64,000 nucleotides of DNA, from assembly GCA_027459745.1 (NCBI GenBank), contig DAIDHL010000004.1, positions 79,240-143,239 of the forward strand, in the 5' to 3' direction. Both the position numbers and the translations under genes were made by a program. Origin of the DNA: Candidatus Levyibacteriota bacterium. Its GTDB lineage: Bacteria > Patescibacteriota > Microgenomatia > Levybacterales > UBA12049. Numbering within the stretch: position 1 is the first letter of the stretch; every line of letters starts with the position of its first letter. Shown piece after piece: positions 4,921 to 45,902 of this stretch. The notes beneath the pieces are model-generated. The model was given only the letters and a program-made list of their open reading frames with translations. It did no database searches and was not told the DNA's origin.

Positions 4921-6267
4921 GTGAAATCTATTTTAATTCTGCTTATTGTGTTAGTAATCGCGGCAGCTGCATCTTTAACTGGCGGTTTTAGCACATTTTT
5001 ACAACCGGTAAATCAAGCCAGCTTGGGATCTATAAGTACTACAATTACCGGCACTTCTACTGGATCAAATAGTTCAACCACTTTAAATGATACCTCCAAA
5101 AGTTTTACACCCGGATCTTTGGTCGGAGATACCATAACCATTAATACCGGCACTGGTGCAGGAGAGTCGGCCACTATAACTTCCAATACGAATAATCAAG
5201 TTACTGTTGATAAACCCTGGCCAACTACGCCTGATACGTCATCAAAATACACAATTACTACTCCTGGCGCAGGAGCTTCGGCAAGTAGCGGAAGTGTAAT
5301 ATTAAAACCTGCACCAAATCAGAATGGACAACAACTCCAATTGAATACTTTTACAATGATTACAATGACACCAACTACAGCACCAACTCCCGCAACAGCT
5401 TGTGTATCTACCGATGGGCCTCGAACCGCTAATTGTTCCTGCAGACCTCCAAGTGTGATCGCAGTAACCTGTAACTCCGGTAACACAACTCCAAGCGTGT
5501 ACTTAGGCCACATGATAAATGAAACATGTCCAGATGAGGGTTTCCCTTGTCAAGATGTGAACCCAATATACTTATCCGGATTAAGCTGTACTCCGACAAG
5601 TTGTGTTTATCTGAAAGATAGTTTAGTAATTCCTGGCTACTATACAATACCTGCAAACCCAAACTATTCTAAATATGAAAATTGCAACAATGTTGCAAAT
5701 GTTTGTTTTGATAAACCTGTCATATATTTATATTCTGATAGAATTATAAAAAATGTGTCAGTAAAACTCGTTATTCCCGGGAGAATTTCCAAAAGCATAC
5801 CTAGCTATCCAGCAGAAGGCTGGAACAATATTACAGTTATACCAGGAGGGATAATAAAATTTAACAATACCCTATATAATGAATTATTTTATGAGACGAA
5901 TGTAAACAGAGTACCTAACTTAAGTACGGGTTATGTATATCCTATCAAAAATTTATCTACAAACTTAAATCAACTTGTAACAAACTTGGGACTTAAACAA
6001 TCTGAGCGAGATGAATTTATTAATTATTGGCTACCGAAGCTTTATGCATTAGATAAGCCATATATATACGTAGGTGTTCTTTCTGGACAAATAAAAGATA
6101 GTGTGGATAAAATAGTTATCTATCCTAAACCTGATGCCACAATTGCTTTTCTGACATTATTCAAAGGACTTGATACAGATATCTCAATCACAGCCCCCAA
6201 ACTACCTATAATTCCTGAACGTAAGGGTTTTGTTATGGTAGAATGGGGAGGAGCGATAGCAAACTAG
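4921..6267 (+). CDS. secreted or cell-surface hypothetical protein (signal anchor, S/T-rich linker, Cys-rich module, C-terminal domain)
   Basis: Apparent GTG start; a hydrophobic N-terminus is followed by a Thr/Ser-rich low-complexity stretch, a cluster of 8 or more Cys, and many N-x-S/T sequons. Confidence 0.5.
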   Translation: MKSILILLIVLVIAAAASLTGGFSTFLQPVNQASLGSISTTITGTSTGSNSSTTLNDTSKSFTPGSLVGDTITINTGTGAGESATITSNTNNQVTVDKPWPTTPDTSSKYTITTPGAGASASSGSVILKPAPNQNGQQLQLNTFTMITMTPTTAPTPATACVSTDGPRTANCSCRPPSVIAVTCNSGNTTPSVYLGHMINETCPDEGFPCQDVNPIYLSGLSCTPTSCVYLKDSLVIPGYYTIPANPNYSKYENCNNVANVCFDKPVIYLYSDRIIKNVSVKLVIPGRISKSIPSYPAEGWNNITVIPGGIIKFNNTLYNELFYETNVNRVPNLSTGYVYPIKNLSTNLNQLVTNLGLKQSERDEFINYWLPKLYALDKPYIYVGVLSGQIKDSVDKIVIYPKPDATIAFLTLFKGLDTDISITAPKLPIIPERKGFVMVEWGGAIAN

Positions 6268-6932
6268 AATATTTTTATAGACGACATGATTATATTGACT
6301 ATAGTTGAATCCTCAACTCTATCTTTAGAATTAGAAAATAATGTTTGTATGATAAATTGATAATTACCACTTTGCACAAAGGAGATACTACCTTGTAATT
6401 TACCATATGATTGTCCATTAATAACTGGCCCATCGACTATCCCTGAAGACACATAAGCTAACTTACCACCTATATTAGTCTTTGTATATTTAAGGTCATT
6501 ACTTATTCCTAAGCTTTCTCTTTCTTGTAGAGATTCATTAGAATTTACAACTTCAGTTATTTTAATATATGGGGCAATGGGGTCATAATATCCATCTTCT
6601 ATCGGCGATAATTTTATGATTTTATATCCTGTTAATGATTGGTCCTGAATACTCCAGTTAGCTGGATATTTTAACGTATAAATACCACCTGAATATACCT
6701 GCCAGTCAGCAGGTACAGATGAAGGATTAAGGGCAATTGATGGAGATACATTAGACGGCAGTGACGAACTAACAGTAGTGGGATTACCCACAGAATTAGG
6801 ACTAGGTTGAGCCGAACTGTTATTAACAACCTTAGTTCTTTGAGAAGAAGGAGAAAACTGAAGAAATAGAGAAAATAAGGCTATGATCACGAGTAAAAAT
6901 ACACCTCCAAACACTAAAAGTTTTTTATTCAT
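6264..6932 (-). CDS. secreted hypothetical protein (signal peptide, S/P-rich linker, globular domain)
   Basis: N-terminal TM/signal segment and an S/P/N-rich linker. It is the last gene of the long minus-strand operon, overlapping the convergent 4921-6267 gene by 4 bp. Confidence 0.45.
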   Translation of the reverse strand: MNKKLLVFGGVFLLVIIALFSLFLQFSPSSQRTKVVNNSSAQPSPNSVGNPTTVSSSLPSNVSPSIALNPSSVPADWQVYSGGIYTLKYPANWSIQDQSLTGYKIIKLSPIEDGYYDPIAPYIKITEVVNSNESLQERESLGISNDLKYTKTNIGGKLAYVSSGIVDGPVINGQSYGKLQGSISFVQSGNYQFIIQTLFSNSKDRVEDSTIVNIIMSSIKIF

Positions 6933-6936
6933 AAAG

Positions 6937-9342
6937 TTATTTAGTTAGAATAAGTTGTCCATTAGCGTCAACACTTATAACTATTTTATCACCTCTATTA
7001 ATCTGATCCTGTAGTTTGGCTTTGGCAAGTAAATCTTCTATATTATCTTGGATATACCGGCGCATCGGACGGGCACCGAATTCTAAATCAGCACCTTCTT
7101 TAACTATCTTATCAATCACCTTCTCATTAAAACTCAAACCAATATCTAATGTGGCCATTTGTTGAATAATATCATTTAATATTAACTTCACTATCTGTGT
7201 TAATTCTGCCGGTCCTAATGGTGAAAAAGTAATCACATCATCAAAACGGTTGAGTAATTCGGGACGAAAAATCTGATTTTGCTGTAGATACTCCAGTAGC
7301 TTTTGCTGAAATACTTTATCAATTTTTTGTCCAGCTACCAGATTTTCCCGTACAAATTCTGCTCCTGCATTTGAGGTAGCTATAATAATACTATTTACAA
7401 ACGTCACTGTTCTACCTTTGTTATCGGTCAAGCGTCCATCTTCTAACACCTGCAGGAACAAATCAAGAATTTTGGGGTGCGCTTTTTCAAATTCATCAAG
7501 TAAAACTAAAGAAAACGGATGGTCATGAATTTTATCGGTTAATTCTCCCCGTTCGTTACCTTCACCTGGAGCTGAACCTAACAAACGTCGTTCTCCGTCT
7601 ATATCAGAATATTCCGACATATCCAGCCTGATCATATTTTGCTCACCACCAAAATACACTGATGCTAAAGCTTTGGCTGTTTCTGATTTACCCACACCAG
7701 TAGGACCTAAGAACAAAAAGGAAATTGGCCTGTTTTGAGTTGTTAAACCAGAGCGCAAACGTCTTAGAGCTTCAGCAATAGCAGAAATAGCTTGTGTCTG
7801 GTCAATTACCTTCTCATGTATTTTATCTTCCAGATGTAATAATAAATCCTTTTCCTCTTTAGTAGGCGCCCCAACATTCACCTGAGTTTTTAGACTAATT
7901 TGAGCTTCTACATCGCTTGCTAAAACCACTTTCTGTTTTGATTTACTTAGATAGTGGGATTTGGGGGATATCGCCACACTGTTGGCTGCATCATTGAGTA
8001 AATTTACTGCGCTGCCGGGTAAAACCGCATCTTGTTCATAACGATCAGCTAAATTAATTGCGGTAAGTACCGCATGGTAGCTTAGATATACTCCATTTTT
8101 GTTCTCAATATCTTCAGTCTTGGCTATTAACATTTGTATAGCAACATCTTTATTGGGTTCTGGTACATTGATTAATGTGAATACCTCATGCAGGGGATTT
8201 TGCTGCATGTAAGTCTTGTAATTCCCAGGCGACATACTGGCAATAATGGGCAAAAATCCTGTTTGCAAATAAGGAAGAAGTGCCCCTGACAAATCAATAG
8301 CATATGAGCTGGCACCCATCAAATTTTCAAACTCGGGAATATACAAAATTACATTACGAGCATGTGAAACTTCAGCCACTATAGACTCTAAACGCAATTC
8401 CAGATCACTACGATTTTCTGCTCCCGCAATCAAAGGTCCCACCATCAGTTGTAATATCTTCTTATGGTTCAAAAAACCCGATAAATTAGAATAATAACTA
8501 TCATTAGCCAACTGGGCTACCAAATTCTCCTTCCCCACTCCATCCTCACCTACTAATAATACATTGTTGTTATCTCCTTTACTTAGAGCCTCCAATAAAG
8601 CCCGATACTGATCATCTCTCCCAACTAAAGATGGTGCTATTCCCCGATAACTAAAATCTTGAGTGTAGTTTTTGGTCTCTGGAGTCCAACCGTTTACTAT
8701 TCCTTCACCTATTCCTTCGCCTGTAAAATTCATACGGATTGGCTGAGGATACTCTTCTGATTTAAACTTATAACGTGCCCATAATAATATTTGTAAAAGC
8801 TCCTCTGGCTTGATTTCATGATTAAAAAGAGTTTTAGTTTGATCTTCGGTTAAAAGTAAATATGCTACTAGTGCATCCATAGTCGTGATATATTTCCCGT
8901 TAATTTGCTCTACTATTTCTGCTGCTTTAGCTAAAACCTGATCAACTTTTATTTCAACTAATTTAATTTCTTCTACGGGAATGGCAGATTTTTCTAAAAT
9001 AAAAAATGCTTGCGAGGTTCTTAATAATTTATGTACAAACTTAGCTAATACAATTGTTGAAAAAATAATCTGTAATAAATCTCTGCTAGTAGACAGTGTC
9101 CACTTACCCTTTTCATTTTTCGCCACAGTTAAAGTAGGCTGAACTAAATACACATGAAAGCGAAAGAACAACTCTGATATGACAAACCAAACAAAGACAA
9201 ACAATGGAAGGCTAACCGATAATTTATGATTTAACTGGTTGAAAAATAACAGAATTACAAACACAAAAATCAAAGTCCTAACCGAACGCATTAAGGCAGA
9301 AGTGTAAAATATTTTTAATTTAACAAGACCTTCTATATTCAT
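6937..9342 (-). CDS. membrane-anchored Hsp100/Clp-like AAA+ protein with a degenerate first nucleotide-binding domain and an intact second one
   Basis: Two N-terminal TM helices. NBD1 has GEDGVGKENL in place of GxxGxGKT and ILYIPEFEN in place of the hhhhDE Walker B. NBD2 is canonical (LGPTGVGKSETAKALA, LVLLDEFEKAH, TSNAG, RPELLNRFDDVITFSPL). Confidence 0.8.
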   Translation of the reverse strand: MNIEGLVKLKIFYTSALMRSVRTLIFVFVILLFFNQLNHKLSVSLPLFVFVWFVISELFFRFHVYLVQPTLTVAKNEKGKWTLSTSRDLLQIIFSTIVLAKFVHKLLRTSQAFFILEKSAIPVEEIKLVEIKVDQVLAKAAEIVEQINGKYITTMDALVAYLLLTEDQTKTLFNHEIKPEELLQILLWARYKFKSEEYPQPIRMNFTGEGIGEGIVNGWTPETKNYTQDFSYRGIAPSLVGRDDQYRALLEALSKGDNNNVLLVGEDGVGKENLVAQLANDSYYSNLSGFLNHKKILQLMVGPLIAGAENRSDLELRLESIVAEVSHARNVILYIPEFENLMGASSYAIDLSGALLPYLQTGFLPIIASMSPGNYKTYMQQNPLHEVFTLINVPEPNKDVAIQMLIAKTEDIENKNGVYLSYHAVLTAINLADRYEQDAVLPGSAVNLLNDAANSVAISPKSHYLSKSKQKVVLASDVEAQISLKTQVNVGAPTKEEKDLLLHLEDKIHEKVIDQTQAISAIAEALRRLRSGLTTQNRPISFLFLGPTGVGKSETAKALASVYFGGEQNMIRLDMSEYSDIDGERRLLGSAPGEGNERGELTDKIHDHPFSLVLLDEFEKAHPKILDLFLQVLEDGRLTDNKGRTVTFVNSIIIATSNAGAEFVRENLVAGQKIDKVFQQKLLEYLQQNQIFRPELLNRFDDVITFSPLGPAELTQIVKLILNDIIQQMATLDIGLSFNEKVIDKIVKEGADLEFGARPMRRYIQDNIEDLLAKAKLQDQINRGDKIVISVDANGQLILTK

Positions 9343-9671
9343 AACTTAATAAAAAATAACCCCAACGAAGCTATCGGTAATATCACAAAACCGCAAATAA
9401 ATAAAAATTCCAAACATAGTAACATAACAAACATTAACATAGAGATTAGAATGAGAACTGTCTTTATAAACATTCCCATGCCTATGGAAAATCCAACCAA
9501 ACCTTGACGATATTCGTTTTTGATCGGTTGAAAAAATGTTCTGAATAATAAACTCAGAGAAAACAAACGCAGAAATGATGTATTTAAAGAAGAAAAAAAT
9601 GATAATAAACCAAGTGGAGCGTTAACATACCAAAATTTCAAGAATTCGACTGGCAGTAATGAATATTGCAT
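9339..9671 (-). CDS. small polytopic membrane protein
   Basis: 110 aa and almost entirely hydrophobic; it overlaps the downstream AAA+ gene by 4 bp, so translational coupling is likely. Confidence 0.4.
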   Translation of the reverse strand: MQYSLLPVEFLKFWYVNAPLGLLSFFSSLNTSFLRLFSLSLLFRTFFQPIKNEYRQGLVGFSIGMGMFIKTVLILISMLMFVMLLCLEFLFICGFVILPIASLGLFFIKL

Positions 9672-9736
9672 ACTACTCTAGCATAGAAAGTTTGACTCAA
9701 AAAAGCAAACCGATACAAGCTAGAAATAGCTTTGAA

Positions 9737-11818
9737 TCATTGACATTCAAAGGTACATAATTGCAACCCACCCGCACCATGTGAACATTTACTTATAACC
9801 TTACATCCTGGTAAAGCCGTATTGGCCTGCTGTAATAAATCCGCAGGAATCTTCCATTCAAGCAAATAATTGCCGGTTTGTGAGATATCGGTCGAATAAG
9901 GTCCAAGCGCCGTGCCGTTGGATAATTGTGCTGTCAGCTGTAGCTGACCAAAGCTAAAGTCAAAAAAACTAGCCCCGCCTGTAGTATCGGTAACCCCGCT
10001 AAATTGTTGACCCCCAGAGCTTAAAGTTAAACTTACATTCGCAATTCCTTCATTGCCATCATAATAGCCGTTATTATTGTTATCAGTATACACAATAACC
10101 TTCATGGATAAATTGGCTGACGGTGTCGCTGAAAGACTAACCGTGCCGTCAGGACTTAAGGTAGGCGACGAGGTTATACCTTTGGCTGACAGAGGTTGAC
10201 TGCTGCAAGCTGGAGAGACCTCAGTCCTATTCAAACAAACTGCTCCTTGTTGGGTATTTACGGGTTGTTGATCCATTTCTGTAGCTTGTAATGCTTTCTC
10301 TACATTAATACAATTATCTGAATAGCCACCATATAAATCATTACACGCCAATAACATATCAATATACATATCCGAAAAATTCGCAGATGGAATTAGATAA
10401 TGTGTCAAAGCCCGATATTGAATCTGATAACTGGCACTACCAATACCATTAATCTGACAACCATTAAAACTACCACCCTGTGTCATTAAATAAAATGCTT
10501 TATTCATAATTCCTTCATTAGTATGAATACCGCCACTATCCTGACTATCACAAATGTATAGTGGTGAAAAAAGCTTATCCGGCTGTCCTGTTAAAGTCGG
10601 ATCATTTAAGTATCTAAAAGGAGTTTTTACACCAGTGAGATGTACATCTTCACCGATCGACCAGTTATGATCAAGACCCGTAGCAAAAATGTCTGAATTA
10701 CTTTCGTTTAAAGCTCCTGACTGATAACTATAGATTAAGCCTGCTGTATAATGTGTCACAGCATGAGTTAATTCATGTGCAACAATATCCAACACATCCA
10801 TGCCCGCACATAATTCAATCCCTCCATCGACATAAGCTGAATTAGGACAAGGAAACCCTGCAATATCTGCCCTATTAACATAACCAAACAATGTAGCGCC
10901 TTTATTATCGATACTGTCACGATTAAAATTATTGAAATAGAATTTATAAACTTTTCCGAAAATATCATAAAGTTTATTCACATCTAAATTTGCGGAAGAC
11001 GACTGACCTTCTGTACGACTCACCACACAATTATCTGAGCTATTACAATTACTAATATTGCGTGATAACAATGTTTCTACCTGATTTTCCTGATAAACAA
11101 TTTCCCCACTGACTAAATCCACAAAATAACGCTTTGCAAAACTTATGGGTTTGGTCTTTGAAGTAACCAATACAGCTAAAACATGGTAGGTTGTACCATC
11201 AGCGCTCAGTCCTAGAGCCTGTAGATTTAGTAAATATTCCTGCTCTTCATTCACGGTCAAACTCAAATTGGGATTCTCTTTTCGTGCCTGATTCAGAGCA
11301 ATTGTTTTTGCTTTTTGGTGATTAATTTGCGTGAATAACGTACTAGGCTGCTTTGTAACAACAACCCCTGCCGCAGCATATATCTCATCCGTGTGCTGAA
11401 TATGAATTGCAATAATACCGTCATAGACAGGAATATTATCGATAGTTTGTTGATAAAAATAATGCTCTGTTCCGGGCAGGTAATCAGTAGGATTTTGCTT
11501 GTCAATCATACTTCTTTGCAGTACTACATTGGAAAATGTATTCAAACCACTACCAAAAATTTTATTGGGATTTGCTCGAATAAAATCTAACGCAGCTGAT
11601 TGCCCTTGTTGATTTGATTTATATAAATAACCGCTTTGTGTATAAAGCGAAAAGGCATTGTCATTGCCATGGGTTACACTATATGAATCTTTTCCTAAAA
11701 TCTCGCTATTAATTGTAACTTGATTAAATACATAAGTTATTAACGAAACGATGGTTAATAGTATAAAAGCTGGAATAAACCAGTATTTTTTTAAATACTG
11801 TATTACTTTCTCTTTCAT
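9737..11818 (-). CDS. membrane-anchored extracytoplasmic thermolysin-family (M4) zinc metalloprotease
   Basis: N-terminal signal anchor; IVAHELTHAVTHYTAGLIYSYQSGALNESNSDIFA matches the thermolysin HEXXH...NExxSD active-site region; the C-terminal region is Cys-rich. Confidence 0.85.
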   Translation of the reverse strand: MKEKVIQYLKKYWFIPAFILLTIVSLITYVFNQVTINSEILGKDSYSVTHGNDNAFSLYTQSGYLYKSNQQGQSAALDFIRANPNKIFGSGLNTFSNVVLQRSMIDKQNPTDYLPGTEHYFYQQTIDNIPVYDGIIAIHIQHTDEIYAAAGVVVTKQPSTLFTQINHQKAKTIALNQARKENPNLSLTVNEEQEYLLNLQALGLSADGTTYHVLAVLVTSKTKPISFAKRYFVDLVSGEIVYQENQVETLLSRNISNCNSSDNCVVSRTEGQSSSANLDVNKLYDIFGKVYKFYFNNFNRDSIDNKGATLFGYVNRADIAGFPCPNSAYVDGGIELCAGMDVLDIVAHELTHAVTHYTAGLIYSYQSGALNESNSDIFATGLDHNWSIGEDVHLTGVKTPFRYLNDPTLTGQPDKLFSPLYICDSQDSGGIHTNEGIMNKAFYLMTQGGSFNGCQINGIGSASYQIQYRALTHYLIPSANFSDMYIDMLLACNDLYGGYSDNCINVEKALQATEMDQQPVNTQQGAVCLNRTEVSPACSSQPLSAKGITSSPTLSPDGTVSLSATPSANLSMKVIVYTDNNNNGYYDGNEGIANVSLTLSSGGQQFSGVTDTTGGASFFDFSFGQLQLTAQLSNGTALGPYSTDISQTGNYLLEWKIPADLLQQANTALPGCKVISKCSHGAGGLQLCTFECQ

Positions 11819-11890
11819 AGTATTATCATACAGGATTATTCAGTGGAGATAAAATAACTATCAAAGGCTGAGATTTAGCCTATTAAAAGC

Positions 11891-14800
11891 TTAAACTATA
11901 CCTGTTTGATCAGAATCACCATTGCTCATCAATGCAGCCGATGAAACTGCTGGTGGAGCGAATGTCATACCAGTAGCGCTGAGTGGCATAGATGTCGGAG
12001 TCATAGAAGAAGCTGATGGTATTTGATCTACTGTAGTAACTGACGGAACTGGGGTCAAACCTGCTACTGGATTTACTTGAGGTATGGAATTCACTCCACT
12101 ATCAAGCGTAGGAGCAGTGTTCGGGCCAACATTATTTATAGAATTTGTATAACTCTGTGCAATATCTCCAATAGTCTGCATTAACGGCTGGCTATCAGAA
12201 CTTGAAAGATCTGAGGGAGCTTGTTTAGATGTACTAACAGCTGGTGTTTCAGTTAAAGGTTGCTCAACTTGCGCTTGTATATTAGGAGTAGTATTGGGAT
12301 TTAATGAATTAACAACCTGATTCGATTGAGAAGTAGTATCGATAGTGGTGGCAGTAGTATTAGATACTGATGCAGTAGGACTATTTACTGTTTGTCCGAC
12401 AGCTTGAGGTTGCGGTTGTAATTTGGTAAAACTAAACTCCGATTTCTGTTGATCGTAATCAATTTTGATGATATCTCCAGCTACAAATGTTTTGTTAATA
12501 ATCATCATGGCAATTGGATTTTCAATAGCTGACTGGATCAAGCGACGTAATGGACGTGCTCCATATTGCGGATCATACCCTTCTTTAGCTAAGACCTCCA
12601 GTGCCCCATCCGTAATTTGCAAAGAGAAGCCCTGATCTTTAAGTAATTTATTAGTCTTTTCCACACCTAATTTAGCAATATATTTCATGTCTTGCTGTCT
12701 CAACGGTTGGAACATAATAATCTCATCAAAACGATTTAATAACTCAGGACGGAAAAATTTATGCAAATCGTCGGAAACTTTGGCCTGCATTTCTTTATAC
12801 ATTTTTTGATACTCTTCGGGTGTTTTGGTTGGTTTGGACAATTGATCCTGAATGTCCTGACTACCAATGTTGGAAGTAGCTATCACTATAGTATTTTTGA
12901 AAGAAATTGTATTACCTTTATTGTCTGTTAAACGTCCATCCTCCAATAGTTGTAACAAAATGTTAAATACATCAGGATGAGCTTTTTCAATTTCATCTAG
13001 TAAAACGATCGAATAAGGCTTTGCACGCACAGCTTCGGTCAATTGTCCTCCTTCTTCATAACCCACGTAACCTGGAGGTGCTCCTATTAATTTCGCAACC
13101 TCATGTTTTTCCATATATTCTGACATATCTAATCGCACCATGGCGTCATCTCGACCAAATAAAATTTCGGCTAATGTTTTGGCCAATTCGGTTTTTCCTG
13201 TACCAGTGGGCCCCAGAAAGATGAAAGAAGCAATCGGACGATTGGCTGCGGCCAGACCAATTCTTCCTCTTCTGACTGCTTCTGCAACTCCGTTGACTGC
13301 TGGTTCTTGATCAATCAATCGCATATGAATACGCTTTTCTAGCTCTAATAATTTTTGACTTTCATCTTCTGTTAATTTGGTAATAGGAATTCCTGTCCAA
13401 GCACTAACTACCTTTTCGATATCAGAGCGTTGGATGGTGTTATCTTGGCGTTTTCCAGCAGACATTTGCAACTTCACTTCCGCAGCTGCCTCGTCCAATA
13501 AATCTACTGCCTTGTCGGGCAAATAGCGTTCACCAATATATTTTTTAGATAATTTAACAGCCTGTTTTAAAGCATCATCTGGGATAGTAACATGATGATA
13601 ATTCTCATATTTGGTTTTTAATACTTGCAGCATTTTTACCGCAGTTTCCTCATCCGGTTCCTCCGCTATGATGGGCTGGAAACGGCGAGCAAAAGCTTTA
13701 TCTTTTTCAAAATACTTTCTGTATTCTGATGTTGTAGTGGTACCGATAATTTGTAATTGTCCACGAGCTAAATTCGGTTTAATGATATTAGAAGCATCCA
13801 AAGCACCCTCATTATCCCCCGTACCAATTAATGTGTGAATTTCATCAAAGAACAAGATCACTTGTCCTCCACTTGACATGGTGTCTTTCATTACACTGCG
13901 TAGTCTTTCTTCAAACTCCCCTCTATGACTAGCGCCTGCTACTAGTGATGAGACATCAATTTGAATAATCTTTTTGTTTTTCAACTCTTCAGGAACATTA
14001 CCTGACACAATCGCCTGAGCCAAACCCTCTACAATAGCCGTCTTACCCACACCAGCTTCACCAATAATAATTGGGTTATTTTTGGTCCTACGTAATAGAA
14101 TATGCACTAATCTATCAACTTCTTTTTCTCTACCTGCAACTGGATCTAATCCACCTTCTTTAGCTTTTTCTGTTAAATCTACACCAAATTTATCTAATAC
14201 TGACTTTCTTCCTTCAGTATAGGCGGATGATTTTTCCAACTTTGCCACAACTTCATCTTTTCTCACACCTTGGGCTTGCAATGTCGCACCACTAGAGGAG
14301 GGGAAAATTGCTAACAAAATGTCTTCCGGAGCGATAAACGAACTACTACGCTCCTTTGCAGACGTAAAAGCAGTTTCAAAGATTTGTTTAACTTGATCAC
14401 TCAAAGTTGGTTGGCCCGTAAAAGTACCTGGTGTTTCCTTGGTTTGTACTTCACGTGATAACTTAGCTACATCTACCTTAAATTGCTCCAATAGCTTATA
14501 GATCTCAGTATCGTATAGCAGACCAAATAGTAATTGTTCAGGCATGATAACTGCCTGCTGAACGCGCATTGCTTCTTGTTTGGCATGCATTAAGACCTGC
14601 ATAGAACGACTATCTAAATGAGAAAGCGCCGACAAATCTTCTCGACGTGAAGGATCCATTGCCGCACTATTGGCTGTAGCGGGAGCAGCGATGGGAATTG
14701 AGGGAGAAGTAGGAGCAGTTGTAGTTGTGGTGCTAGTCTGTTGGAAAGTCTGAGTAGGTAAAGCCATCGCAGCAACAGGAGCAACTACCACTGGCCCACT

Positions 14801-14944
14801 GGCACTAATAGTTGCAGAGCTACTTTGAGTGGTTTGTGTGGTTTCTGTCACAGGAGGAATTCCAGCTGATTGATCAGTAGATACACCATTATCATTAGTC
14901 TTTGTACCACCAAATAAATTTCCCAACATATATCTATTGTTCAA
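11891..14944 (-). CDS. clpC: ClpC/ClpB-like Hsp100 AAA+ unfoldase with long low-complexity N- and C-terminal extensions
   Basis: Two Clp_N repeats, NBD1 GEAGVGKTAIVEGLAQ, a short UVR-like middle domain, NBD2 GPTGTGKTELAKTLA, and the sensor and arginine-finger motifs. No [IVL]GF ClpP-docking tripeptide was found. The N-terminal roughly 100 aa and C-terminal roughly 250 aa are S/T/P/Q-rich. An annotated TTG start is followed by the first ATG five codons in. Confidence 0.9.
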   Translation of the reverse strand: MNNRYMLGNLFGGTKTNDNGVSTDQSAGIPPVTETTQTTQSSSATISASGPVVVAPVAAMALPTQTFQQTSTTTTTAPTSPSIPIAAPATANSAAMDPSRREDLSALSHLDSRSMQVLMHAKQEAMRVQQAVIMPEQLLFGLLYDTEIYKLLEQFKVDVAKLSREVQTKETPGTFTGQPTLSDQVKQIFETAFTSAKERSSSFIAPEDILLAIFPSSSGATLQAQGVRKDEVVAKLEKSSAYTEGRKSVLDKFGVDLTEKAKEGGLDPVAGREKEVDRLVHILLRRTKNNPIIIGEAGVGKTAIVEGLAQAIVSGNVPEELKNKKIIQIDVSSLVAGASHRGEFEERLRSVMKDTMSSGGQVILFFDEIHTLIGTGDNEGALDASNIIKPNLARGQLQIIGTTTTSEYRKYFEKDKAFARRFQPIIAEEPDEETAVKMLQVLKTKYENYHHVTIPDDALKQAVKLSKKYIGERYLPDKAVDLLDEAAAEVKLQMSAGKRQDNTIQRSDIEKVVSAWTGIPITKLTEDESQKLLELEKRIHMRLIDQEPAVNGVAEAVRRGRIGLAAANRPIASFIFLGPTGTGKTELAKTLAEILFGRDDAMVRLDMSEYMEKHEVAKLIGAPPGYVGYEEGGQLTEAVRAKPYSIVLLDEIEKAHPDVFNILLQLLEDGRLTDNKGNTISFKNTIVIATSNIGSQDIQDQLSKPTKTPEEYQKMYKEMQAKVSDDLHKFFRPELLNRFDEIIMFQPLRQQDMKYIAKLGVEKTNKLLKDQGFSLQITDGALEVLAKEGYDPQYGARPLRRLIQSAIENPIAMMIINKTFVAGDIIKIDYDQQKSEFSFTKLQPQPQAVGQTVNSPTASVSNTTATTIDTTSQSNQVVNSLNPNTTPNIQAQVEQPLTETPAVSTSKQAPSDLSSSDSQPLMQTIGDIAQSYTNSINNVGPNTAPTLDSGVNSIPQVNPVAGLTPVPSVTTVDQIPSASSMTPTSMPLSATGMTFAPPAVSSAALMSNGDSDQTGIV

Positions 14945-14956
14945 TTTTTTTTTGTA

Positions 14957-14979
14957 TTAGTCAAGCTGACTAATCATGC
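14957..14979 (-). promoter_or_regulatory. palindromic TTAGTCAAGCTGACTAA element, 14-30 bp upstream of the clpC-like start, sharing a 12-mer with the hrcA upstream region (26391-26402)
   Basis: A perfect 7-3-7 inverted repeat. On the coding strand it contains TTGACT (-35-like). The identical TTAGTCAAGCTG occurs upstream of the hrcA operon. Confidence 0.35.
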
Positions 14980-15019
14980 TAATTCATAATTTCAACGTCA
15001 GATTTCTAAACTACTTTAA

Positions 15020-17935
15020 TTAGGAATAATCTTTTGTTTCTGGTTTTGTATCTACTTGTTTATCATCTTTTACAGATTTTTCACTTTGTTCTTCTCCATA
15101 AGCCTTAAGAGGCATATCTAAATGTTGTTCCAGTGTGTTCTCTTGAGTCTTACTGGCCCTTTGAGATAACAGAGTATCTTCTTCCTCTTCTTGCTTGCCT
15201 AAAGTAGCCAAGACTTCTTTGGCAGCTTGTGCTTTGGCCTTTAAGTAAGCCACGATTTCTGATTGAGAGAAACCACCAATCAAGAGGAAAGGCAGAATAC
15301 CTGATACACGCTGCATACCCTGACTTACTTGCAATTGATCTGGAGAAGAAAGCAATGAAATTGTCTCCGTTATCTCTTCGATATCTGACTGTAACCATGA
15401 TTTACGATCATTAATTCGGCCATCCAAAGTTTCTGGAACATCCATGCTGGTATAGTTATCAGACCACATTTGTCTGACTGCTTCGTAATCTTCAATACTT
15501 ACAGTTTGAATACGATTGGAAGTAGGTAAATTAGCAGAAGCACCTGATGTTTGTACTCCATTCTGGGCCAAGAGCTCCAATACCTTTACGGCCAAAGGAT
15601 CTCCTTTTTGCTTAGCTTCACGCAAAGACTTTAACAGACGTTGCACTTGCGCAATAATATCGGGAGATTGTGTCGAATTTAATAACTCAGTAGCTAATTT
15701 ATTTCCTTTGCGGCTTTCTTGTTTAAGCTGTTCGTGTAACTTCGTCACGGTGGGTAAATCTAACTTGCCTTTTTGTGAAACTAACTTGCTTGCAGCCAAG
15801 ACATTTACCGCTACAGGATTATTGCGCGTACTTTCCTGATGCAATGCCTGCACAAGAGTGGTTAAGGTTGAAGGCATGTTAGTCGTAGATTGCGTAGCAA
15901 TTTTTTGAATCATTTGGGAGATACTTTCAATCTCGGTCTTATTTATAGTGTTCATGGTCGAGACAACCAGAGAAGCAGTGGCGTTTCCTTTTTCGCTCTG
16001 TTCCACGATGGTTTGACGTATCTCATTGGCTTTAGTCCTCTCCATTTGAGTCGTAGCGTTAGTGGGATTTAAGATTGTGTTCATAGTTTGCTGTACCGTG
16101 TTTGCCGTCTGTTTACTGACAGTAGTAGCTGTGGCTAAGGTCGCTGCTTGCAGAATATTTTTGGCCAATACATTGCCCTTCTGACTCTCCACCATCAATC
16201 TCCCTCTGATCTGCCGATATGTATCCTGCTGGGCACCCATTGCACTAGTAGGGTTGGCAATTTTAGCCAAAGTCTGTTCATAACGCATGGAAGTAGGTGA
16301 AGACTTATTACTCATCATGCTCTTTTCGAATTGAGCAATATCTCGCATCGTGGGGACATTAAGACTGGTCAATTTCGTGATGTCCGAATTAATTTTTACG
16401 GGTAACTGGACAGGTTGATTACGTCTAATATCCACGTTCACAGGCACTTTGAAGTTCGCACCAAAGGGCAATGATTTAGCCAGCCCAGCCGGCTTATATT
16501 TACCTGGTGGCTGAGGAGCAGCAGGCGCTGGTGGAGGAGGATTAAACAAAGTTGGACTTCTAGCTATCAATTGCTGAACCCAAGCATTTTCATTAATTGA
16601 GAACGAGTTTAGATAGTCAAGGAAGATCTGTAATAGAATAAAAGGCAATAAAATCACTACCCACAACATCATCAAAGCTACCACATATTCGGCGAAGGTT
16701 TCAATATAATTCACGCTGTTATTAATGCCAACCTGTTGTTTCGGACCACCAAGTAAGATATTTATAGCGGTAGGAAATCTATCTAATAATTGAGGTGATC
16801 CAGCCTTAAAAGTTGAGGGATCCTGTCCACCTAAGACAGCCGAAGAGTTATAAGTCTCACCAGCTAAATCGGTATGTGTATAGTCTGTAAAGTTAAGTGG
16901 AATGTAATGAACCCATACACTTACTAACCCTGCTAGTAAAATTGAAAATAAAGGCGCGTATAATAACCAACGAAAGAACTCGCCTATCCATATTTTAGCA
17001 GTATTACGAACAGGACTAAAAAACAACAGTAACGGAAAGACCGGAGACAAAATAATAAAAAACCACATGATAATCTTACGCAGTAATAAAATCCCTACCA
17101 TTACGTAGTAGGTAATGGCTGTTAACTTAACTAATAATAAAGCAATAAAAGCAGATTCTGTAGAGTTAGGATCCGCCAAACGCAAACCGACAAAAGTAGC
17201 ATAATCCCATCCTACAAATAACAGATCTTTTTGCGAAATGTTATTGGGGGCATATGTAGGACTCTTAAGGAAAAATAGCTGAACGATATCTCCAAGCTGA
17301 TAAAGAAATTGAATAATACTCCAGGAGAAATAGACTAGAACTACAATAACGACAAAGCGAATCATGAAACGTCTTACGGTCAAGCTTCTGCCTCGAGTGG
17401 CAATGATAACAATAGCCGCAATAATCAAGACTACAGCCAATAAAGCATATACTATTTCGCTAATAGTCGCCCAAAAAATCTGTAATGGATTTTGCGATGC
17501 AGCTCCTACACTTCCTGGTATCAAATATACCCAGCTAAAATTTTTTGCATTTAAAGTCCAGTCAAGTAGGAGCCCAGCGCGGGCTGCATTTTGTCCAACA
17601 AATGTTACCTCACTATCTGGCACATATGTACCCGTGGGAACTGGCGTAGTACCAATTGAGATTGCCCCTCCTCCCCCTGGTACAGTAGTAGTAGGCGTGG
17701 GGGTGGCAGTAGGAGTCATAGTGGGTGTGGGTGTAGAGGTAGAGACTGCAACAATAGTATTACATGTCCCAACTCCGCCCGCACCAATAATACAAGTCTG
17801 CGTATTGCCTGGAGGTACACTATCGCATCTTATTGCATTTGTTCCACAGGTAGTATAACTAGCAAAAGTATGTGAAAAACTAAACGAAAATAATAATATG
17901 AATAAACCGATTACTATGGGCAGTTTTTTAAGCAT
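15020..17935 (-). CDS. giant polytopic membrane protein, VirB6/TrbL-like architecture
   Basis: Signal peptide, a Cys-rich plus TPT-rich linker, about 6-8 TM helices, a poly-Pro stretch (NPPPPAPAAPQPPG), and a roughly 400-aa hydrophilic tail carrying repeated [QE]KGN/KGD alpha-helical motifs. It lies downstream of a pilin-like gene. Confidence 0.45.
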   Translation of the reverse strand: MLKKLPIVIGLFILLFSFSFSHTFASYTTCGTNAIRCDSVPPGNTQTCIIGAGGVGTCNTIVAVSTSTPTPTMTPTATPTPTTTVPGGGGAISIGTTPVPTGTYVPDSEVTFVGQNAARAGLLLDWTLNAKNFSWVYLIPGSVGAASQNPLQIFWATISEIVYALLAVVLIIAAIVIIATRGRSLTVRRFMIRFVVIVVLVYFSWSIIQFLYQLGDIVQLFFLKSPTYAPNNISQKDLLFVGWDYATFVGLRLADPNSTESAFIALLLVKLTAITYYVMVGILLLRKIIMWFFIILSPVFPLLLFFSPVRNTAKIWIGEFFRWLLYAPLFSILLAGLVSVWVHYIPLNFTDYTHTDLAGETYNSSAVLGGQDPSTFKAGSPQLLDRFPTAINILLGGPKQQVGINNSVNYIETFAEYVVALMMLWVVILLPFILLQIFLDYLNSFSINENAWVQQLIARSPTLFNPPPPAPAAPQPPGKYKPAGLAKSLPFGANFKVPVNVDIRRNQPVQLPVKINSDITKLTSLNVPTMRDIAQFEKSMMSNKSSPTSMRYEQTLAKIANPTSAMGAQQDTYRQIRGRLMVESQKGNVLAKNILQAATLATATTVSKQTANTVQQTMNTILNPTNATTQMERTKANEIRQTIVEQSEKGNATASLVVSTMNTINKTEIESISQMIQKIATQSTTNMPSTLTTLVQALHQESTRNNPVAVNVLAASKLVSQKGKLDLPTVTKLHEQLKQESRKGNKLATELLNSTQSPDIIAQVQRLLKSLREAKQKGDPLAVKVLELLAQNGVQTSGASANLPTSNRIQTVSIEDYEAVRQMWSDNYTSMDVPETLDGRINDRKSWLQSDIEEITETISLLSSPDQLQVSQGMQRVSGILPFLLIGGFSQSEIVAYLKAKAQAAKEVLATLGKQEEEEDTLLSQRASKTQENTLEQHLDMPLKAYGEEQSEKSVKDDKQVDTKPETKDYS

Positions 17936-17936
17936 A

Positions 17937-18368
17937 TTAATTTATTTTGTGATATTCGTAATCTGAATTCTTCACATACTGATCATTTTTATATAGTTGA
18001 ATCCACTTTTTTTCTTGCCCTACCGGGACTGTAACTTCAAAAACAATATCTGAACCAGTTTGGCTATAACTACCATTGGAGTTATATTGTATGAGTCTTG
18101 CAGGTTCTGCATTCTCCAAGAATAAGCTTACTGCTTCATTATAATTAGTATTATCCACTGTAACTAAAATCTTACCCGGCACATAAGGTGATAAGCCAAT
18201 AATTCTATAAATTCCAGTTTGATAGACAAAAGATGGGTTATTAAAAACATACAAATAAAGAATGAACATAAATAATGTAACAAAAACTCCAAATAAAAAG
18301 CCCGTAACAAAAGAGTACTTACGCTTGGATGGCTGTGAAATTTTTATTGGCATAACTTTATGCTCCAA
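17937..18368 (-). CDS. small bitopic membrane protein (one TM helix plus a C-terminal soluble domain)
   Basis: 143 aa with a single hydrophobic helix near the N-terminus; it is coupled to the flanking genes by 2-nt and 11-bp junctions. Confidence 0.45.
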   Translation of the reverse strand: MEHKVMPIKISQPSKRKYSFVTGFLFGVFVTLFMFILYLYVFNNPSFVYQTGIYRIIGLSPYVPGKILVTVDNTNYNEAVSLFLENAEPARLIQYNSNGSYSQTGSDIVFEVTVPVGQEKKWIQLYKNDQYVKNSDYEYHKIN

Positions 18369-18666
18369 ACCCTGGCAATTTTAAGATATCGACCAAAACA
18401 ATCTGGATAAACAAATAGCCAAAAATGGCTAATAATAATCCGGCAATCGCATAGTATAAATAACTTTTACCATTACGTAGTGCGGCTGGATCTCCTTGCG
18501 AAGTTAAGAGAATATATGCACCATAAAGAATAAAGATCAAGGACAATCCACCCATAATACTCAAACCAATCCCATAAAACTTTTCTGCAAAGGCAACGGG
18601 ATCAGTAGGTATACAACCGAAATCAGTTGTGATTCCAGTTCCTCCATTTGGCAAAGTACACTGCAT
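18358..18666 (-). CDS. T4SS pilin-like small protein (VirB2/TrbC-like or Gram-positive T4SS_pilin-like)
   Basis: 102 aa with two hydrophobic helices separated by a short polar loop (GIGLSIMGGLSLIFILYGAYILLTSQGDPAALRNGKSYLYYAIAGLLLAIFGYLFIQIV), typical of conjugative and T4SS pilins. It is the first gene of the operon. Confidence 0.5.
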   Translation of the reverse strand: MQCTLPNGGTGITTDFGCIPTDPVAFAEKFYGIGLSIMGGLSLIFILYGAYILLTSQGDPAALRNGKSYLYYAIAGLLLAIFGYLFIQIVLVDILKLPGFGA

Positions 18667-19223
18667 AATATAACGTTAGCAGAGATAGCCAATAAAAACA
18701 ATATTATGACGGCTAAATTTGTTAAATTAACTTAACTGCTCATAACAAAAAAACACTCCCAGCTGAATAGACTGAGAGTGTTTGAGATTTTGAAAATAGT
18801 ATTTGTAAAAGAAATTTTTGCAATCATTAAATAAGTTATCTTGGTATAACCGTTTCAATATTATCTCGCCCTATTAAGCTTATATTGCTGAACAGTCTTT
18901 TGATTTATAGATAAGTTAATTTAGATTCCAAATATAGATTTTGTGTAGCCTTCTTGGTTATTATTGTAAAACTTTATAGCTGAATGACCCAAATTAATCT
19001 TATCAATATTGAGAATAATGATATTATTTGTTATCGAACAGGATATTATATTTCAAACAACAACAAATTCAAAAATTTCTTTATATATTCCTTTTTCCTT
19101 GTACCTCCTTCTGATAAGAATCATATCAGTCATTACTGAAAAATGACTTAATAATTTATAATATTTCTAACTAACCCTGAGCTTGTATTGTCCTAGAGTA
19201 ATTGACATAATTACCCCTCTCAA

Positions 19224-21799: not shown

Positions 21800-22687
21800 T
21801 TAGAACCACTTTTTATTATCTGTAGATTTATCAAACTCTTCTAATAATTCCTTTTGTCTTTTATTTACATTTTTGGGTACAACTATTTTAATTTTGACAT
21901 AATGATCACCCCGTCCTGAGGAACGCAAACGAGGCATACCTTTGCCAGACAAGCGAATTAAAGTACCCGGCTGAGTTCCTGAGGGAATTTTAATTTTTAC
22001 ACTATCATCTACTGTCCTAACCTCTAGTTGCATACCCAATACTGCCTGAGGGAAAGTTATCTCTTCTTCCGTAATAATATCTGCTCCCTCTCGTTGGAAA
22101 TGCTTATCTGGAATAACGTCAAGTACTACATCATAAGTCTCAAATCTAATCCGCGAACCGGTATCAACTCCGGCCGGAATTTTAATTTTTTGTTTCTTAT
22201 TTTCAATTGTAACTTCTCTTTCTACTCCTTTTACCGCATCAGCAAAAGAGATTGTCAAGGAATAAACTGGACGTCTAGCCTGGCGAAAACCACCTCCAAA
22301 AAATTGCTCGAATATATCAAATGGATCAGAAAAACCACCAAAATCAAAATCCTGCCCATTATTACCTCCACTTGTGTAAGTATAACTGAAGGGTCCATAT
22401 TGTCCTCCGCCTGCGAAAGGATTTCCACTAAACGGACCTTGGCCACCTGCACCAGCACCTGGTCCCTCAAAAGCAGCCGCACCGAACTGATCATAAGTTT
22501 GACGTTTTTGCGGATCGCCTAAAACCTCATAGGCCTTGTTAATTTCTTTAAATTTCTCTTCTGCTTCTTTAGTTTTATTACGATCCGGATGATACTGCAA
22601 TGCTAACTTGCGATAAGCACGTTTAAGTTCCTCCGCTGAAGCAGATTTGGAAACACCCAAAATTGAATAATAATCTTGATTTGCCAT
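21800..22687 (-). CDS. dnaJ: DnaJ-family co-chaperone lacking the Cys-rich zinc-finger domain (CbpA-like)
   Basis: J domain with HPD (DYYSILGV...YHPDRN), a G/F-rich region and C-terminal substrate-binding domains, but no CxxCxGxG repeats. The likely true start is the ATG at 22687; the track starts at a TTG at 22699. Confidence 0.85.
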
Positions 22688-22699
22688 ATATTTAAACAA

Positions 22700-22792
22700 A
22701 AAAAGCGCTTTCGCGCTTGGATCTTTGTCATGCTGACTTAATTCAGCATCCTCGAAATAACCATAGAAGATTCTGAACCAAGTTCAGAATGA
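22700..22792 (-). terminator. cluster of three hairpins (the last with a GNRA loop and T7 tract) between dnaK and dnaJ; an intrinsic terminator or attenuator
   Basis: On the minus strand: TTCTGAAC-ttg-GTTCAGAA, ATGCTGA-attaag-TCAGCAT, and AAGCGC-gaaa-GCGCTT followed by TTTTTTT, all immediately before the dnaJ start. Confidence 0.6.
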
Positions 22793-22798
22793 CTTGCA

Positions 22799-24691: not shown

Positions 24692-24698
24692 ATTTTTA

Positions 24699-25217: not shown

Positions 25218-25226
25218 AAATTTTAA

Positions 25227-25967: not shown

Positions 25968-26025
25968 AATTAGCAAAATAATAGCACGAGTGCCAACTGT
26001 TGTCAAGAAGCCGAAATATATCTTA

Positions 26026-42666: not shown

Positions 42667-42671
42667 AAAAT

Positions 42672-43835: not shown

Positions 43836-43837
43836 AG

Positions 43838-44641: not shown

Positions 44642-44644
44642 AAT

Positions 44645-45898: not shown

Positions 45899-45902
45899 AA
45901 TT

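Follow-up and report, generated by a model that had tools for sequence, protein, structure and literature searches.

A row of eight minus-strand genes at positions 6264-18666 of a 64-kb stretch of DNA from a Candidatus Levyibacteriota bacterium (contig DAIDHL010000004.1; the whole stretch of 64,000 nucleotides is called the window below) brings together a pilin-like protein, a large VirB6-like membrane protein, two Hsp100-type ATPases and an extracytoplasmic protease. In the reading that we prefer, to which we assign a probability of about 0.4, the row comprises two modules within the heat-shock neighborhood of Levybacteria: the first would be an envelope apparatus derived from a type IV secretion system (T4SS), and the second would be separate from it. 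The juxtaposition of the pilin-like, VirB6-like and Hsp100 genes is conserved and not fortuitous, and the comparative signal appears unusually clean, if confined to one lineage. This conserved locus hints at an undescribed envelope machine without proving one. The genes of the row are:

g1: 18358..18666, minus strand; VirB2-like pilin of 102 amino acids (aa) with two transmembrane (TM) helices
g2: 17937..18368, minus strand; bitopic membrane protein, 143 aa, a lineage-specific insertion
g3: 15020..17935, minus strand; extended VirB6-like polytopic protein, 971 aa
g4: 11891..14944, minus strand; atypical class-I Hsp100, 1017 aa from an uncertain TTG start
g5: 9737..11818, minus strand; membrane-anchored extracytoplasmic M4 (thermolysin-type) protease, 693 aa
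g6: 9339..9671, minus strand; hydrophobic membrane protein, 110 aa
g7: 6937..9342, minus strand; membrane-tethered Hsp100-like ATPase, 801 aa
g8: 6264..6932, minus strand; 222 aa, with an N-terminal signal or hydrophobic anchor, lineage-specific

A preliminary description of this DNA had counted nine genes and suggested that they could form a single machine. The open reading frame (ORF) calls give eight, and all gaps are too small for a ninth: g1 and g2 overlap by 11 bp, g2 and g3 are 1 bp apart, the next three junctions (g3/g4, g4/g5 and g5/g6) span 75, 72 and 65 bp, g6 and g7 overlap by 4 bp, and g7 and g8 are separated by 4 bp. The tight, co-directional packing that had been described is borne out by these junctions, and the 143-aa bitopic protein lies where it was placed; in the remaining order only the 110-aa gene was misplaced, since it does not precede the M4 protease but comes after it, ahead of the second Clp protein. 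The single-machine view fares less well, given that g2 and g8 are found only in one close relative and that g6-g7 can be separated from the rest (see below). The row may be co-transcribed, and its regulation by heat shock may be supposed.

Conservation of the gene row

Relatives were obtained by scanning GTDB species representatives with g3, which yielded 80 loci, most of the named ones belonging to Levyibacteriota; gene order was assessed by tblastn of the window proteins against these species-level loci, and two genes were counted as adjacent when they shared a strand and were no more than 600 bp apart. The closest relative, contig DAIDHK010000001.1, encodes a g3 homolog 83% identical to that of the window and has the same eight-gene row. 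The locus is also present on OZ246394.1 and OY970292.1, both of them complete chromosomes. Almost all loci share the order dnaK-dnaJ-g1-g3-g4-(variable 2-5 kb)-g6-g7-nusA: g1 is adjacent to g3 in 76 of 77 loci (with a gap of about 117 bp where g2 is absent), g3 to g4 in 59 of 69, or in 69 of 70 when one inserted gene is allowed, and g6 to g7 in 37 of 37. As internal controls from the same genomes, dnaK is adjacent to dnaJ in 39 of 66 loci, and g7 to nusA in 5 of 24. Because the adjacency counts for g1-g3-g4 exceed that for dnaK and dnaJ, the linkage within this block is tighter than that of a classical pair of operonic chaperone genes. The gene for dnaK lies upstream of g1 in 66 loci, and dnaJ precedes g1 in 49 and follows g4 in 14; in these 14, g1-g3-g4 remain contiguous and sit between dnaK and dnaJ. 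The one locus that departs from the pairing of g3 with an Hsp100 is L027, from which the pilin, Hsp100 and dnaK have all been lost.

The g3 family is compact. More than 600 homologs are found in the database, all from Patescibacteria-type metagenome-assembled genomes (MAGs), several of them labelled Levybacteria, and an exhaustive scan of 1.84 billion representative proteins gave 426 matches at E <=1e-3 and 207 at E <=1e-30.

In the window, the heat-shock operon that accompanies the row in most relatives is separated from it by two plus-strand genes, and nusA and infB (identified by Pfam) lie downstream of the row:

hrcA-grpE-dnaK-dnaJ heat-shock operon: 21800..26033, minus strand; upstream of the row, identified by Pfam

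Hydropathy predicts one N-terminal anchor each for g2, g5 and g8, that of g2 being its single TM segment (residues 24-42). Neither g2, g6 nor g8 has any match in Pfam or NCBIfam, and among the 80 loci g2 and g8 have tblastn matches solely in the 83%-identical relative; these two genes are lineage-specific additions outside the conserved core.

The pilin-like and VirB6-like proteins

In addition to its two TM helices, g1 has a conserved cytoplasmic loop (TSxGDP...GKSY), a conserved pair of cysteines near the N-terminus and a C-terminal PGF. Taken alone, the Pfam calls for the window's own g1 and g3 are not secure, because both scores fall below the gathering thresholds: g1 reaches 20.2 bits against T4SS_pilin (PF18895; threshold 26.6), and g3 reaches 22.1 bits against TrbL/VirB6 (PF04610; E 1.4e-4, residues 189-344; threshold 25.9). 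Among the orthologs of g1, 74 of 77 match PF18895 at E <=0.01 (best E 2.5e-8) and three match TrbC/VirB2; 7 of 25 relatives of g3 match TrbL (best E 2.4e-5).

The predicted layout of g3 consists of a signal peptide, an outer N-terminal region rich in Cys, Thr and Pro, a membrane domain with a VirB6-type fold, and an all-helical tail of about 500 aa:

g3 VirB6-fold membrane domain: residues ~95-470, 16526-17653, minus strand; from the structure model
g3 all-helical tail: 15023-16525, minus strand; 'ANP...GNxLAxxIL' repeats and a highly conserved terminal domain

An AlphaFold2 model of residues 95-470, built from a 90-sequence alignment, has a predicted local distance difference test score of 83 and a predicted TM-score of 0.80. 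When this model was compared to known structures with Foldseek, six TrwI chains ranked at the top, the best with a probability of 0.99 and a target TM-score of 0.52, with weak E-values. At the level of family and predicted fold, the pilin-like and VirB6-like assignments of the preliminary description are thus supported, the window's own pilin being below threshold.

No paralogs of g1 or g3 occur elsewhere in the window. In about 14 loci, a second, longer protein with a T4SS_pilin domain (221-421 aa) lies upstream of hrcA, often divergently oriented (e.g., L002 4655-5320 and L083 1476-2741, both on the minus strand, the latter scoring 29.3 bits); this paralog does not occur in the window.

An atypical Hsp100

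The product of g4 contains a Clp_N domain and two intact nucleotide-binding domains (NBDs; Pfam Clp_N, AAA, AAA_lid_9, AAA_2 and D2-small), flanked by long disordered N- and C-terminal tails rich in Ser, Thr, Pro and Gln. It keeps all the catalytic motifs of an active Hsp100 and aligns equally well, in two pieces, to ClpC and ClpB structures, but by sequence it does not appear to be any of the housekeeping Clp types. Scores against the NCBIfam models of known classes all fall short of the cut-offs: 892 (in two pieces) against 1232 for ClpB (TIGR03346), 721 against 993 for ClpA, 696 against 885 for ClpV/TssH (TIGR03345), and 668 and 709 for ClpG/ClpK, far under cut-offs of 1900. The ClpI class of Actinomycetota has an M-domain and a different architecture.

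Two features that couple Hsp100 proteins to other machinery are absent from g4. The region corresponding to the M-domain of ClpC is unmatched, and the linker between NBD1 and NBD2 has a median length of 30 aa in the 56 orthologs in which it could be measured; lacking an M-domain, g4 would be excluded from the canonical DnaK-docking route of ClpB. Where S. aureus ClpC has the ClpP-docking loop 'RFAGFGG', g4 aligns with 'LSKPTKT', and the sole match to [ILV]G[FL] in g4, as in g7, is an IGL tripeptide outside the ClpP loop, so that g4 would be unable to feed ClpP. The pore loops of the two NBDs differ: the NBD1 pore loop reads GASHRGEFE in 58 of 67 orthologs, with Tyr in none and His in its place in 60, and the GYVG loop of NBD2 is intact in all 67. 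On this sequence evidence, g4 would act as an autonomous unfoldase or remodeller. It has no signal peptide and no convincing TM segment, there being one weak hydropathy peak in the disordered N-tail, and is presumably cytoplasmic.

A further tie between g4 and g3 comes from repeats. Those in the tail of g3 (residues 500-800, the 'ANP...GNxLAxxIL' units) recur in a C-terminal extension of g4 in 19 of 67 orthologs (phmmer E down to 2e-18), and within the loci they were found in no ORF class other than g3 and g4. Repeat-bearing g4 proteins (median 1378 aa) go with long g3 proteins (median 1261 aa), and repeat-free g4 proteins (median 906 aa) with short ones (median 808 aa). Because g4 is presumably cytoplasmic and carries the same repeats, the tail of g3 would be cytoplasmic too; the five long helices of the model and the analogy with VirB6 argue for the same orientation.

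A locus-specific tag on downstream proteases

The preliminary description had called g5 a membrane-anchored M4 protease with its catalytic domain facing outward, and the domain matches agree with this. The protein combines an FTP propeptide, the catalytic domains, an SdrD_B-like beta-sandwich (a weak SdrD_B match) and a C-terminal tail with four cysteines; the Pfam matches are above threshold (PF02868, 120.5 bits; PF01447, 35.5 bits; FTP, 28.4 bits), and the translation has an intact zinc site, HELTH with a downstream NES, as in the M4 family. The tail is located as follows:

g5 four-Cys tail (GCKVISKCSHGAGGLQLCTFECQ): approximately 9740-9808, minus strand; sequence motif

Among the ORFs that relatives have between g4 and g6, the largest cluster is made up of proteases with an N-terminal anchor and catalytic domains of differing families (13 of S8, 5 of M4 and 1 of M28), usually with an SdrD_B or CarboxypepD_reg beta-sandwich. 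At the extreme C-terminus these slot proteases typically carry the motif 'Y.C..DP.C....(I/L)Q(L/I)C.L.CTP(K/N)', with a 2-Cys variant in some. The 80 loci contain 996 ORFs of 150 aa or more, and a loose version of this pattern detects the tail in 30 of them. All 30 are on the same strand just downstream of g3/g4, and they are spread over 29 of the 60 loci whose sequence was sufficient; in the window, g5 alone has the tail. A tailed protease accompanies g4 in 28 of 48 loci in which g4 is repeat-free and in none of 19 in which it bears repeats. Two tail-bearing S8 proteases stand directly after the g3 homolog in L027, despite the loss of pilin, Hsp100 and dnaK from that locus.

Since the catalytic domain has been swapped under a constant tag, there is good evidence, drawn from the sequences of the slot, that the presence of a protease here is under selection and that its M4 type is incidental. 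The place given to an M4 protease in the system therefore needs amending: a surface protease does recur, in about half of the loci, but M4 is one of several interchangeable types.

In eight loci (L011, L013, L022, L024, L034, L067, L070 and L073), a subtilase prodomain (Fervidolysin_NPro-like) is encoded as a separate TM-anchored ORF of 150-180 aa that overlaps the start of the S8 gene; gene splitting, programmed frameshifting or faulty assembly could each account for this.

A second, separable Clp module

For g7, hydropathy predicts two to three N-terminal TM helices, and Pfam matches NBD2 strongly and NBD1 weakly. NBD1 is degenerate in both nucleotide-binding motifs (Walker A GEDGVGKE, Walker B IPE), which upholds the earlier call of a membrane-anchored Clp protein with a dead NBD1; NBD2 has intact Walker A and B motifs and a pore loop, GSAPGEGNE, with no aromatic residue. 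The 41 orthologs are very uniform and measure 801±12 aa: where recognizable, their NBD1 Walker A is typically GxxGxGKE, and their recognizable NBD2 pore loops are mostly G..PGEG.E, one having Phe and none the canonical Tyr of GYVG. Without this Tyr in its second NBD, g7 is probably not a threading unfoldase, and the missing pore-loop aromatics make an unfoldase role of any kind unlikely. More than 350 homologs, about 50% identical, occur across Levybacteria-type MAGs.

The invariable adjacency of g6 and g7 suggests that g6 is an obligate partner gene of g7. Locus L083, whose MAG bears the label Roizmanbacteria, has g6-g7 two genes after hrcA-grpE-dnaK-dnaJ and lacks g1-g3-g4 in that interval; the pair thus travels with the heat-shock operon and is separable from g1-g3-g4.

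VirB4 and the relation to known T4SS

Of the components by which a T4SS is recognized, the row supplies a VirB6-type polytopic inner-membrane component (g3), and the 64-kb window has neither a VirB4-family ATPase nor a VirD4 coupling protein or relaxase. No Pfam match to VirB4, VirD4, VirB11, a relaxase or an integrase was found among the scanned ORFs of at least 120 aa in the window, a few short ORFs being unscanned; VirB4 was likewise absent from the inspected flanks of the relatives' loci, and no VirB3, VirB8 or VirB1-type partners were seen near the row. The earlier statement that VirB4 and VirD4 are missing thus stands for the scanned ORFs of the window, the source genome beyond these 64 kb lying outside the scan, and the window flanks confirm that no ordinary T4SS gene set adjoins the row.

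In a survey of chromosomal T4SS in Patescibacteria (Quinonero-Coronel et al. 2025, PMC12102498), VirB4 is the only universal T4SS component and was found in 2417 of 3035 assemblies, in Microgenomatia usually near dnaA/dnaN. Within Table S1 of that survey, VirB4 is scored 'Yes' for 20 and 'No' for 24 of the 44 Levybacteria assemblies counted, and 'Yes' for nearly all ABY1 and Paceibacteria assemblies. Three of our loci come from assemblies, all drafts, that also appear in the table: L063 is scored 'Yes' for VirB4, and L062 and L067 'No'. Since L063 bears both the locus and VirB4, the locus clearly does not require the absence of VirB4.

The same survey describes VirB6 as 'scarce' in Microgenomatia, 'suggesting extreme sequence divergence' (PMC12102498), and the g3 family is a good candidate for this missing VirB6. 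A 2025 review of T4SS (PMC12857230) states that protein substrates need unfolding by an unfoldase that has not been identified and that the role of extended VirB6 domains is unexplained, and contains no word beginning 'Clp'. Full-text searches of the literature on Patescibacteria or Levybacteria with VirB6, pilin, Clp, ClpB or heat shock returned no description of the association reported here.

A proposed apparatus and its alternatives

In the two-module reading, g1, g3 and g4, usually with a protease such as g5, would form the T4SS-derived envelope apparatus. By analogy with the TrwI/VirB6 pentamer of plasmid R388, the extended VirB6-like g3 would provide a membrane platform, with the VirB2-like pilin g1 as its membrane-embedded partner. 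The Hsp100 encoded by g4 would dock on the long helical cytoplasmic tail of g3 and supply ATP-driven pulling, either to extract pilin from the membrane, which is the job ascribed to VirB4, or to unfold protein cargo. The downstream protease would be exported by Sec, held by its N-terminal anchor, and docked by means of the Cys tail to the platform or pilus on the outer side, the outcome being a protease-armed surface structure for an ultra-small, host- or nutrient-dependent cell. In the second module, g7 would be an Hsp100 derivative that is tethered to the membrane and does not thread substrates, with g6 as its small TM partner; this module would belong with the hrcA-dnaK-dnaJ operon and probably serve as a scaffold or regulator, not as an unfoldase. 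Functional coupling along these lines is plausible from the gene order, repeats and tags. In its most specific form, in which a ClpV-like Hsp100 docked on the extended VirB6 tail of VirB4-lacking Levybacteria powers a pilus or secretion apparatus of T4SS descent that displays a Cys-tail protease, the proposal is unlikely.

Several observations weigh against the two-module reading. The evidence for coupling is wholly genomic. The g4 of the window itself is free of g3-type repeats, and repeats common to neighboring genes could stem from local recombination. Judged by hydropathy alone, g3 has six TM segments after its signal peptide, which would put the tail outside the cell, and the fold of the tail gave no functional clue. 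About half of the loci are without a tailed protease. Homologs of g3 at 35-40% identity, aligned over the membrane domain, have no Hsp100, dnaK or family pilin as a neighbor and no recognizable T4SS partner adjoining them; cohesin-domain, LPXTG-like, SpoU and HD proteins stand beside them instead. The link between g3 and the Hsp100 is confined to one clade in which the wider region from dnaK to nusA is largely syntenic, so that inherited gene order explains part of the signal. Finally, g4 could simply be the disaggregase of this lineage, since there are precedents for clpB beside dnaK/dnaJ: in other bacteria, such as Thermus, clpB lies downstream of these genes.

These points feed the strongest competing explanation, which the embedding of the row in a heat-shock cluster, overlooked in the preliminary description, makes the simpler one: a heat-shock and proteostasis cluster, inherited as a block, in which a remnant VirB2/VirB6 pair and a protease have lodged, g4 being a general chaperone (a stand-alone disaggregase without an M-domain), g7 a membrane Clp derivative, and the T4SS-derived pair working alone or with a remote VirB4. 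It fits the presence of the row in the dnaK/dnaJ neighborhood in 66 of 80 loci, the retention of g6-g7 by the dnaK operon where g1-g3-g4 are absent (L083), the lack of an Hsp100 beside distant g3 homologs, the intact catalytic motifs of g4, and the occurrence of VirB4, which lies near dnaA in Microgenomatia, in many of the Levybacteria assemblies tabulated in PMC12102498. Shared descent of the region does not account for everything, however: g3 and g4 stay adjacent more faithfully than dnaK and dnaJ in the same genomes, and g1-g3-g4 remain intact when dnaJ relocates; 19 orthologs of g4 carry g3-type repeats that co-vary with g3 length; g4 lacks the M-domain by which ClpB couples to DnaK; and the protease tag is exclusive to the locus. 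We take inheritance without a joint machine seriously while considering it rather doubtful. It would go further than the two-module reading to suppose that g4, alone or together with g7, has wholly taken over from VirB4 and VirD4 in driving a T4SS-derived secretion or pilus machine in VirB4-less genomes. No VirB4 or VirD4 occurs in the window or the inspected loci; in the tabulated assemblies of PMC12102498, 24 of 44 from Levybacteria are VirB4-negative as against nearly all positive in ABY1 and Paceibacteria, two of our loci (L062 and L067) being among those scored 'No'; and T4SS substrates need unfolding (PMC12857230). Against this, the VirB4-negative assemblies are draft MAGs, L063 bears both the locus and VirB4, g7 is without pore-loop aromatics, and no VirB3, VirB8 or VirB1-type partners are seen nearby, which together render full replacement improbable.

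An envelope quality-control system, in which g4, g7/g6 and the protease clear misfolded membrane and secreted proteins under stress and the pilin and VirB6-like proteins are clients or a route of retro-translocation, would explain the position of the row in an HrcA-type heat-shock cluster, the proximity of a membrane-tethered AAA+ protein to an outward-facing protease, and the interchangeable protease classes, which point to a generic degradative role. It would not account for the need for a pilin and a VirB6 fold, and it sits poorly with a g7 whose NBD1 is dead and whose pore loop has no aromatic residue, with proteases that bear a specific conserved tail in place of PDZ-type quality-control domains, and with the protease that follows g3 in L027 even without Hsp100 and dnaK; we consider it quite improbable. 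As for an ordinary conjugative or integrative T4SS that happens to lie beside unrelated chaperones, the weak TrbL and T4SS_pilin matches could be read that way, but the window has no VirB4, VirD4, relaxase or integrase, the flanks are nusA, infB, dnaK and tRNA synthetases at a uniform GC content of about 36%, and the same chromosomal position is kept in about 80 species, so that this account is scarcely credible. A mobile element of either kind was ruled out as a candidate by these housekeeping flanks, the uniform GC and the fixed position across species. A defense system was also considered and rejected: PADLOC returned only generic Clp-domain matches (PDC-M37B, DolB) for g4 and g7, and no match for the other eight proteins submitted (the six remaining row genes and two flanking ORFs).

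Comparison with known systems and implications

The closest parallels to the g1-g3 pair are the chromosomal T4SS of Patescibacteria related to MPF_FATA, which are likewise non-conjugative, chromosomal, equipped with PF18895 pilins and a VirB6-type protein, and found in monoderm members of the candidate phyla radiation (PMC12102498). The pair of the row differs in that it is not beside virB4, virB3 and trsD but in a heat-shock cluster next to an Hsp100, and in that its VirB6-like protein has a helical tail of about 500 aa; the survey mentions no Clp or DnaK link (PMC12102498). Compared with TrwI/VirB6 and TrwL/VirB2 of R388 (PDB 7O3V, 8RT9, 8RTD), identity is only 12-14%, and, unlike the R388 system, the row has no VirB5, VirB3, VirB4 or VirB8 genes nearby, its VirB6-like protein has a large, presumably cytoplasmic extension, and its host is monoderm. 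Like the extended VirB6 proteins of the Rickettsiales type (PMC12857230), g3 consists of a VirB6 core with a large additional domain, but it belongs to another lineage, its extension is a different one, and its repeats are held in common with a neighboring Hsp100.

With respect to role, g4 may work like ClpV/TssH, as a class-I Hsp100 without a ClpP-docking loop that is encoded in the cluster of an envelope machine and acts on its components. It is architecturally closest to ClpV in the part that ClpV plays for the type VI secretion system, and ClpV also lacks the NBD1 pore-loop Tyr. The window has no type VI genes, however, and the TIGR03345 score of g4 is below its cut-off. The linkage to hrcA-grpE-dnaK-dnaJ and the intact double-ring ATPase motifs and NBD2 pore loop recall ClpB-DnaK, whereas the 30-aa linker in place of the DnaK-docking M-domain, the replaced NBD1 Tyr and the sub-threshold TIGR03346 score set g4 apart from ClpB. 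The stand-alone disaggregases ClpG/ClpK, which act without DnaK, resemble g4 in having extra terminal extensions; those of g4 are disordered and of low complexity, or made of g3-type repeats, and g4 has no M-domain. The protease tag may be compared, by analogy only, with the LPXTG signal for sortase and the C-terminal domain of type IX secretion, each being a short conserved C-terminal element on enzymes of different families in one neighborhood. It differs from these in being a soluble motif with two to four cysteines, not a TM/charged signal or a beta-sandwich, and no sortase-like gene was seen.

T4SS-like genes are widespread in Patescibacteria and are essential in the one tested case, Southlakia epibionticum (Wang et al. 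2023, as cited in PMC12102498). For one large lineage of Microgenomatia, the g3 family offers a VirB6-like protein supported by structure prediction, and the association of this protein with a pilin and a non-canonical Hsp100, often joined by a surface protease that bears the tag, and not with VirB4, is unreported. If g4 does work on the platform, this would bear on what unfolds T4SS substrates or extracts pilin, and on how genome-reduced cells may rebuild envelope machines from spare parts; with g4 as the motor in Levybacteria that lack VirB4, the apparatus would be the first of T4SS descent, whether for secretion or as a pilus, to be powered by an Hsp100 unfoldase. Even if the coupling is false, three elements would be new: a family of M-domain-less, ClpP-independent Hsp100 proteins; a pseudo-unfoldase, tethered to the membrane and linked to the dnaK operon, that has an obligate TM partner; and a C-terminal Cys tag, specific to this locus, that S8, M4 and M28 proteases have in common.

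Genomic setting and other features of the window

The window is part of the housekeeping chromosome of a Levybacteria-type Patescibacterium and not a mobile element. Its remainder encodes tRNA synthetases, TatD, glycosyltransferases, a LysX-type set, murB, greA, tsaD, rmuC and an AddA-type helicase; GC content is about 36% and uniform over the 64 kb, and no tRNA genes were found in it. In the 83%-identical relative, a Mu-transposase/IstB-type gene (L001, 1-937) is found on the far side of hrcA, some 9 kb upstream of g1; the matching part of the window has none.

Upstream of the row, the intergenic region of 557 bp (18667-19223), in which no minus-strand gene ends, contains a hairpin:

hairpin with a 13-bp stem (AAACACTCTCAGT...GCTGGGAGTGTTT) followed by a T-run: 18751..18783, minus strand; 85 bp upstream of the g1 start

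Its half-sites (CACTC/GAGTG) resemble those of the controlling inverted repeat of chaperone expression (CIRCE), with the wrong spacing; it is not a CIRCE element and has no match in Rfam. A noncoding RNA or riboswitch upstream of g1 was dismissed after no Rfam match was obtained across 5500-27000. With up to 3 mismatches allowed, no CIRCE operator was found in the whole window, and HrcA control of the row through CIRCE was rejected on this basis. The hrcA gene itself (25227-26033) is present, which suggests that the HrcA operator of the lineage is divergent.

On the other side of the row, and convergent with g8, a plus-strand gene at 4921-6267 encodes a secreted Cys-rich protein of 448 aa with no Pfam family. 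In at least five other species a homolog is inserted between g3 and g4, and at two contig ends one follows g3 (L015, L021, L033, L036, L062, L019 and L066 being the loci with a homolog just after g3), so that this protein appears to be a loosely associated but recurring neighbor.

The only large ORF of the window without a family match is found at 27232-30327 on the minus strand. It encodes 1031 aa of low complexity, with long collagen-like GKDGADGG repeats, coiled-coil segments and a hydrophobic stretch, no Pfam match and no Walker A motif by eye; it could be a surface fiber protein. The minus-strand gene run at 42040-47776 resembles the LysW/LysX-type amino-group-carrier pathway for lysine or arginine, with a RimK/LysX ATP-grasp protein, a semialdehyde dehydrogenase, a homocitrate-synthase-like HMGL protein, an amino-acid kinase, a class-III aminotransferase and a GATase_4 protein, and is unexpected in a lineage usually described as without amino-acid biosynthesis. 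The minus-strand gene at 40115-42001 encodes a class-II tRNA synthetase (Asp/Asn/Lys-type) with a DUF2000 domain fused at its C-terminus.

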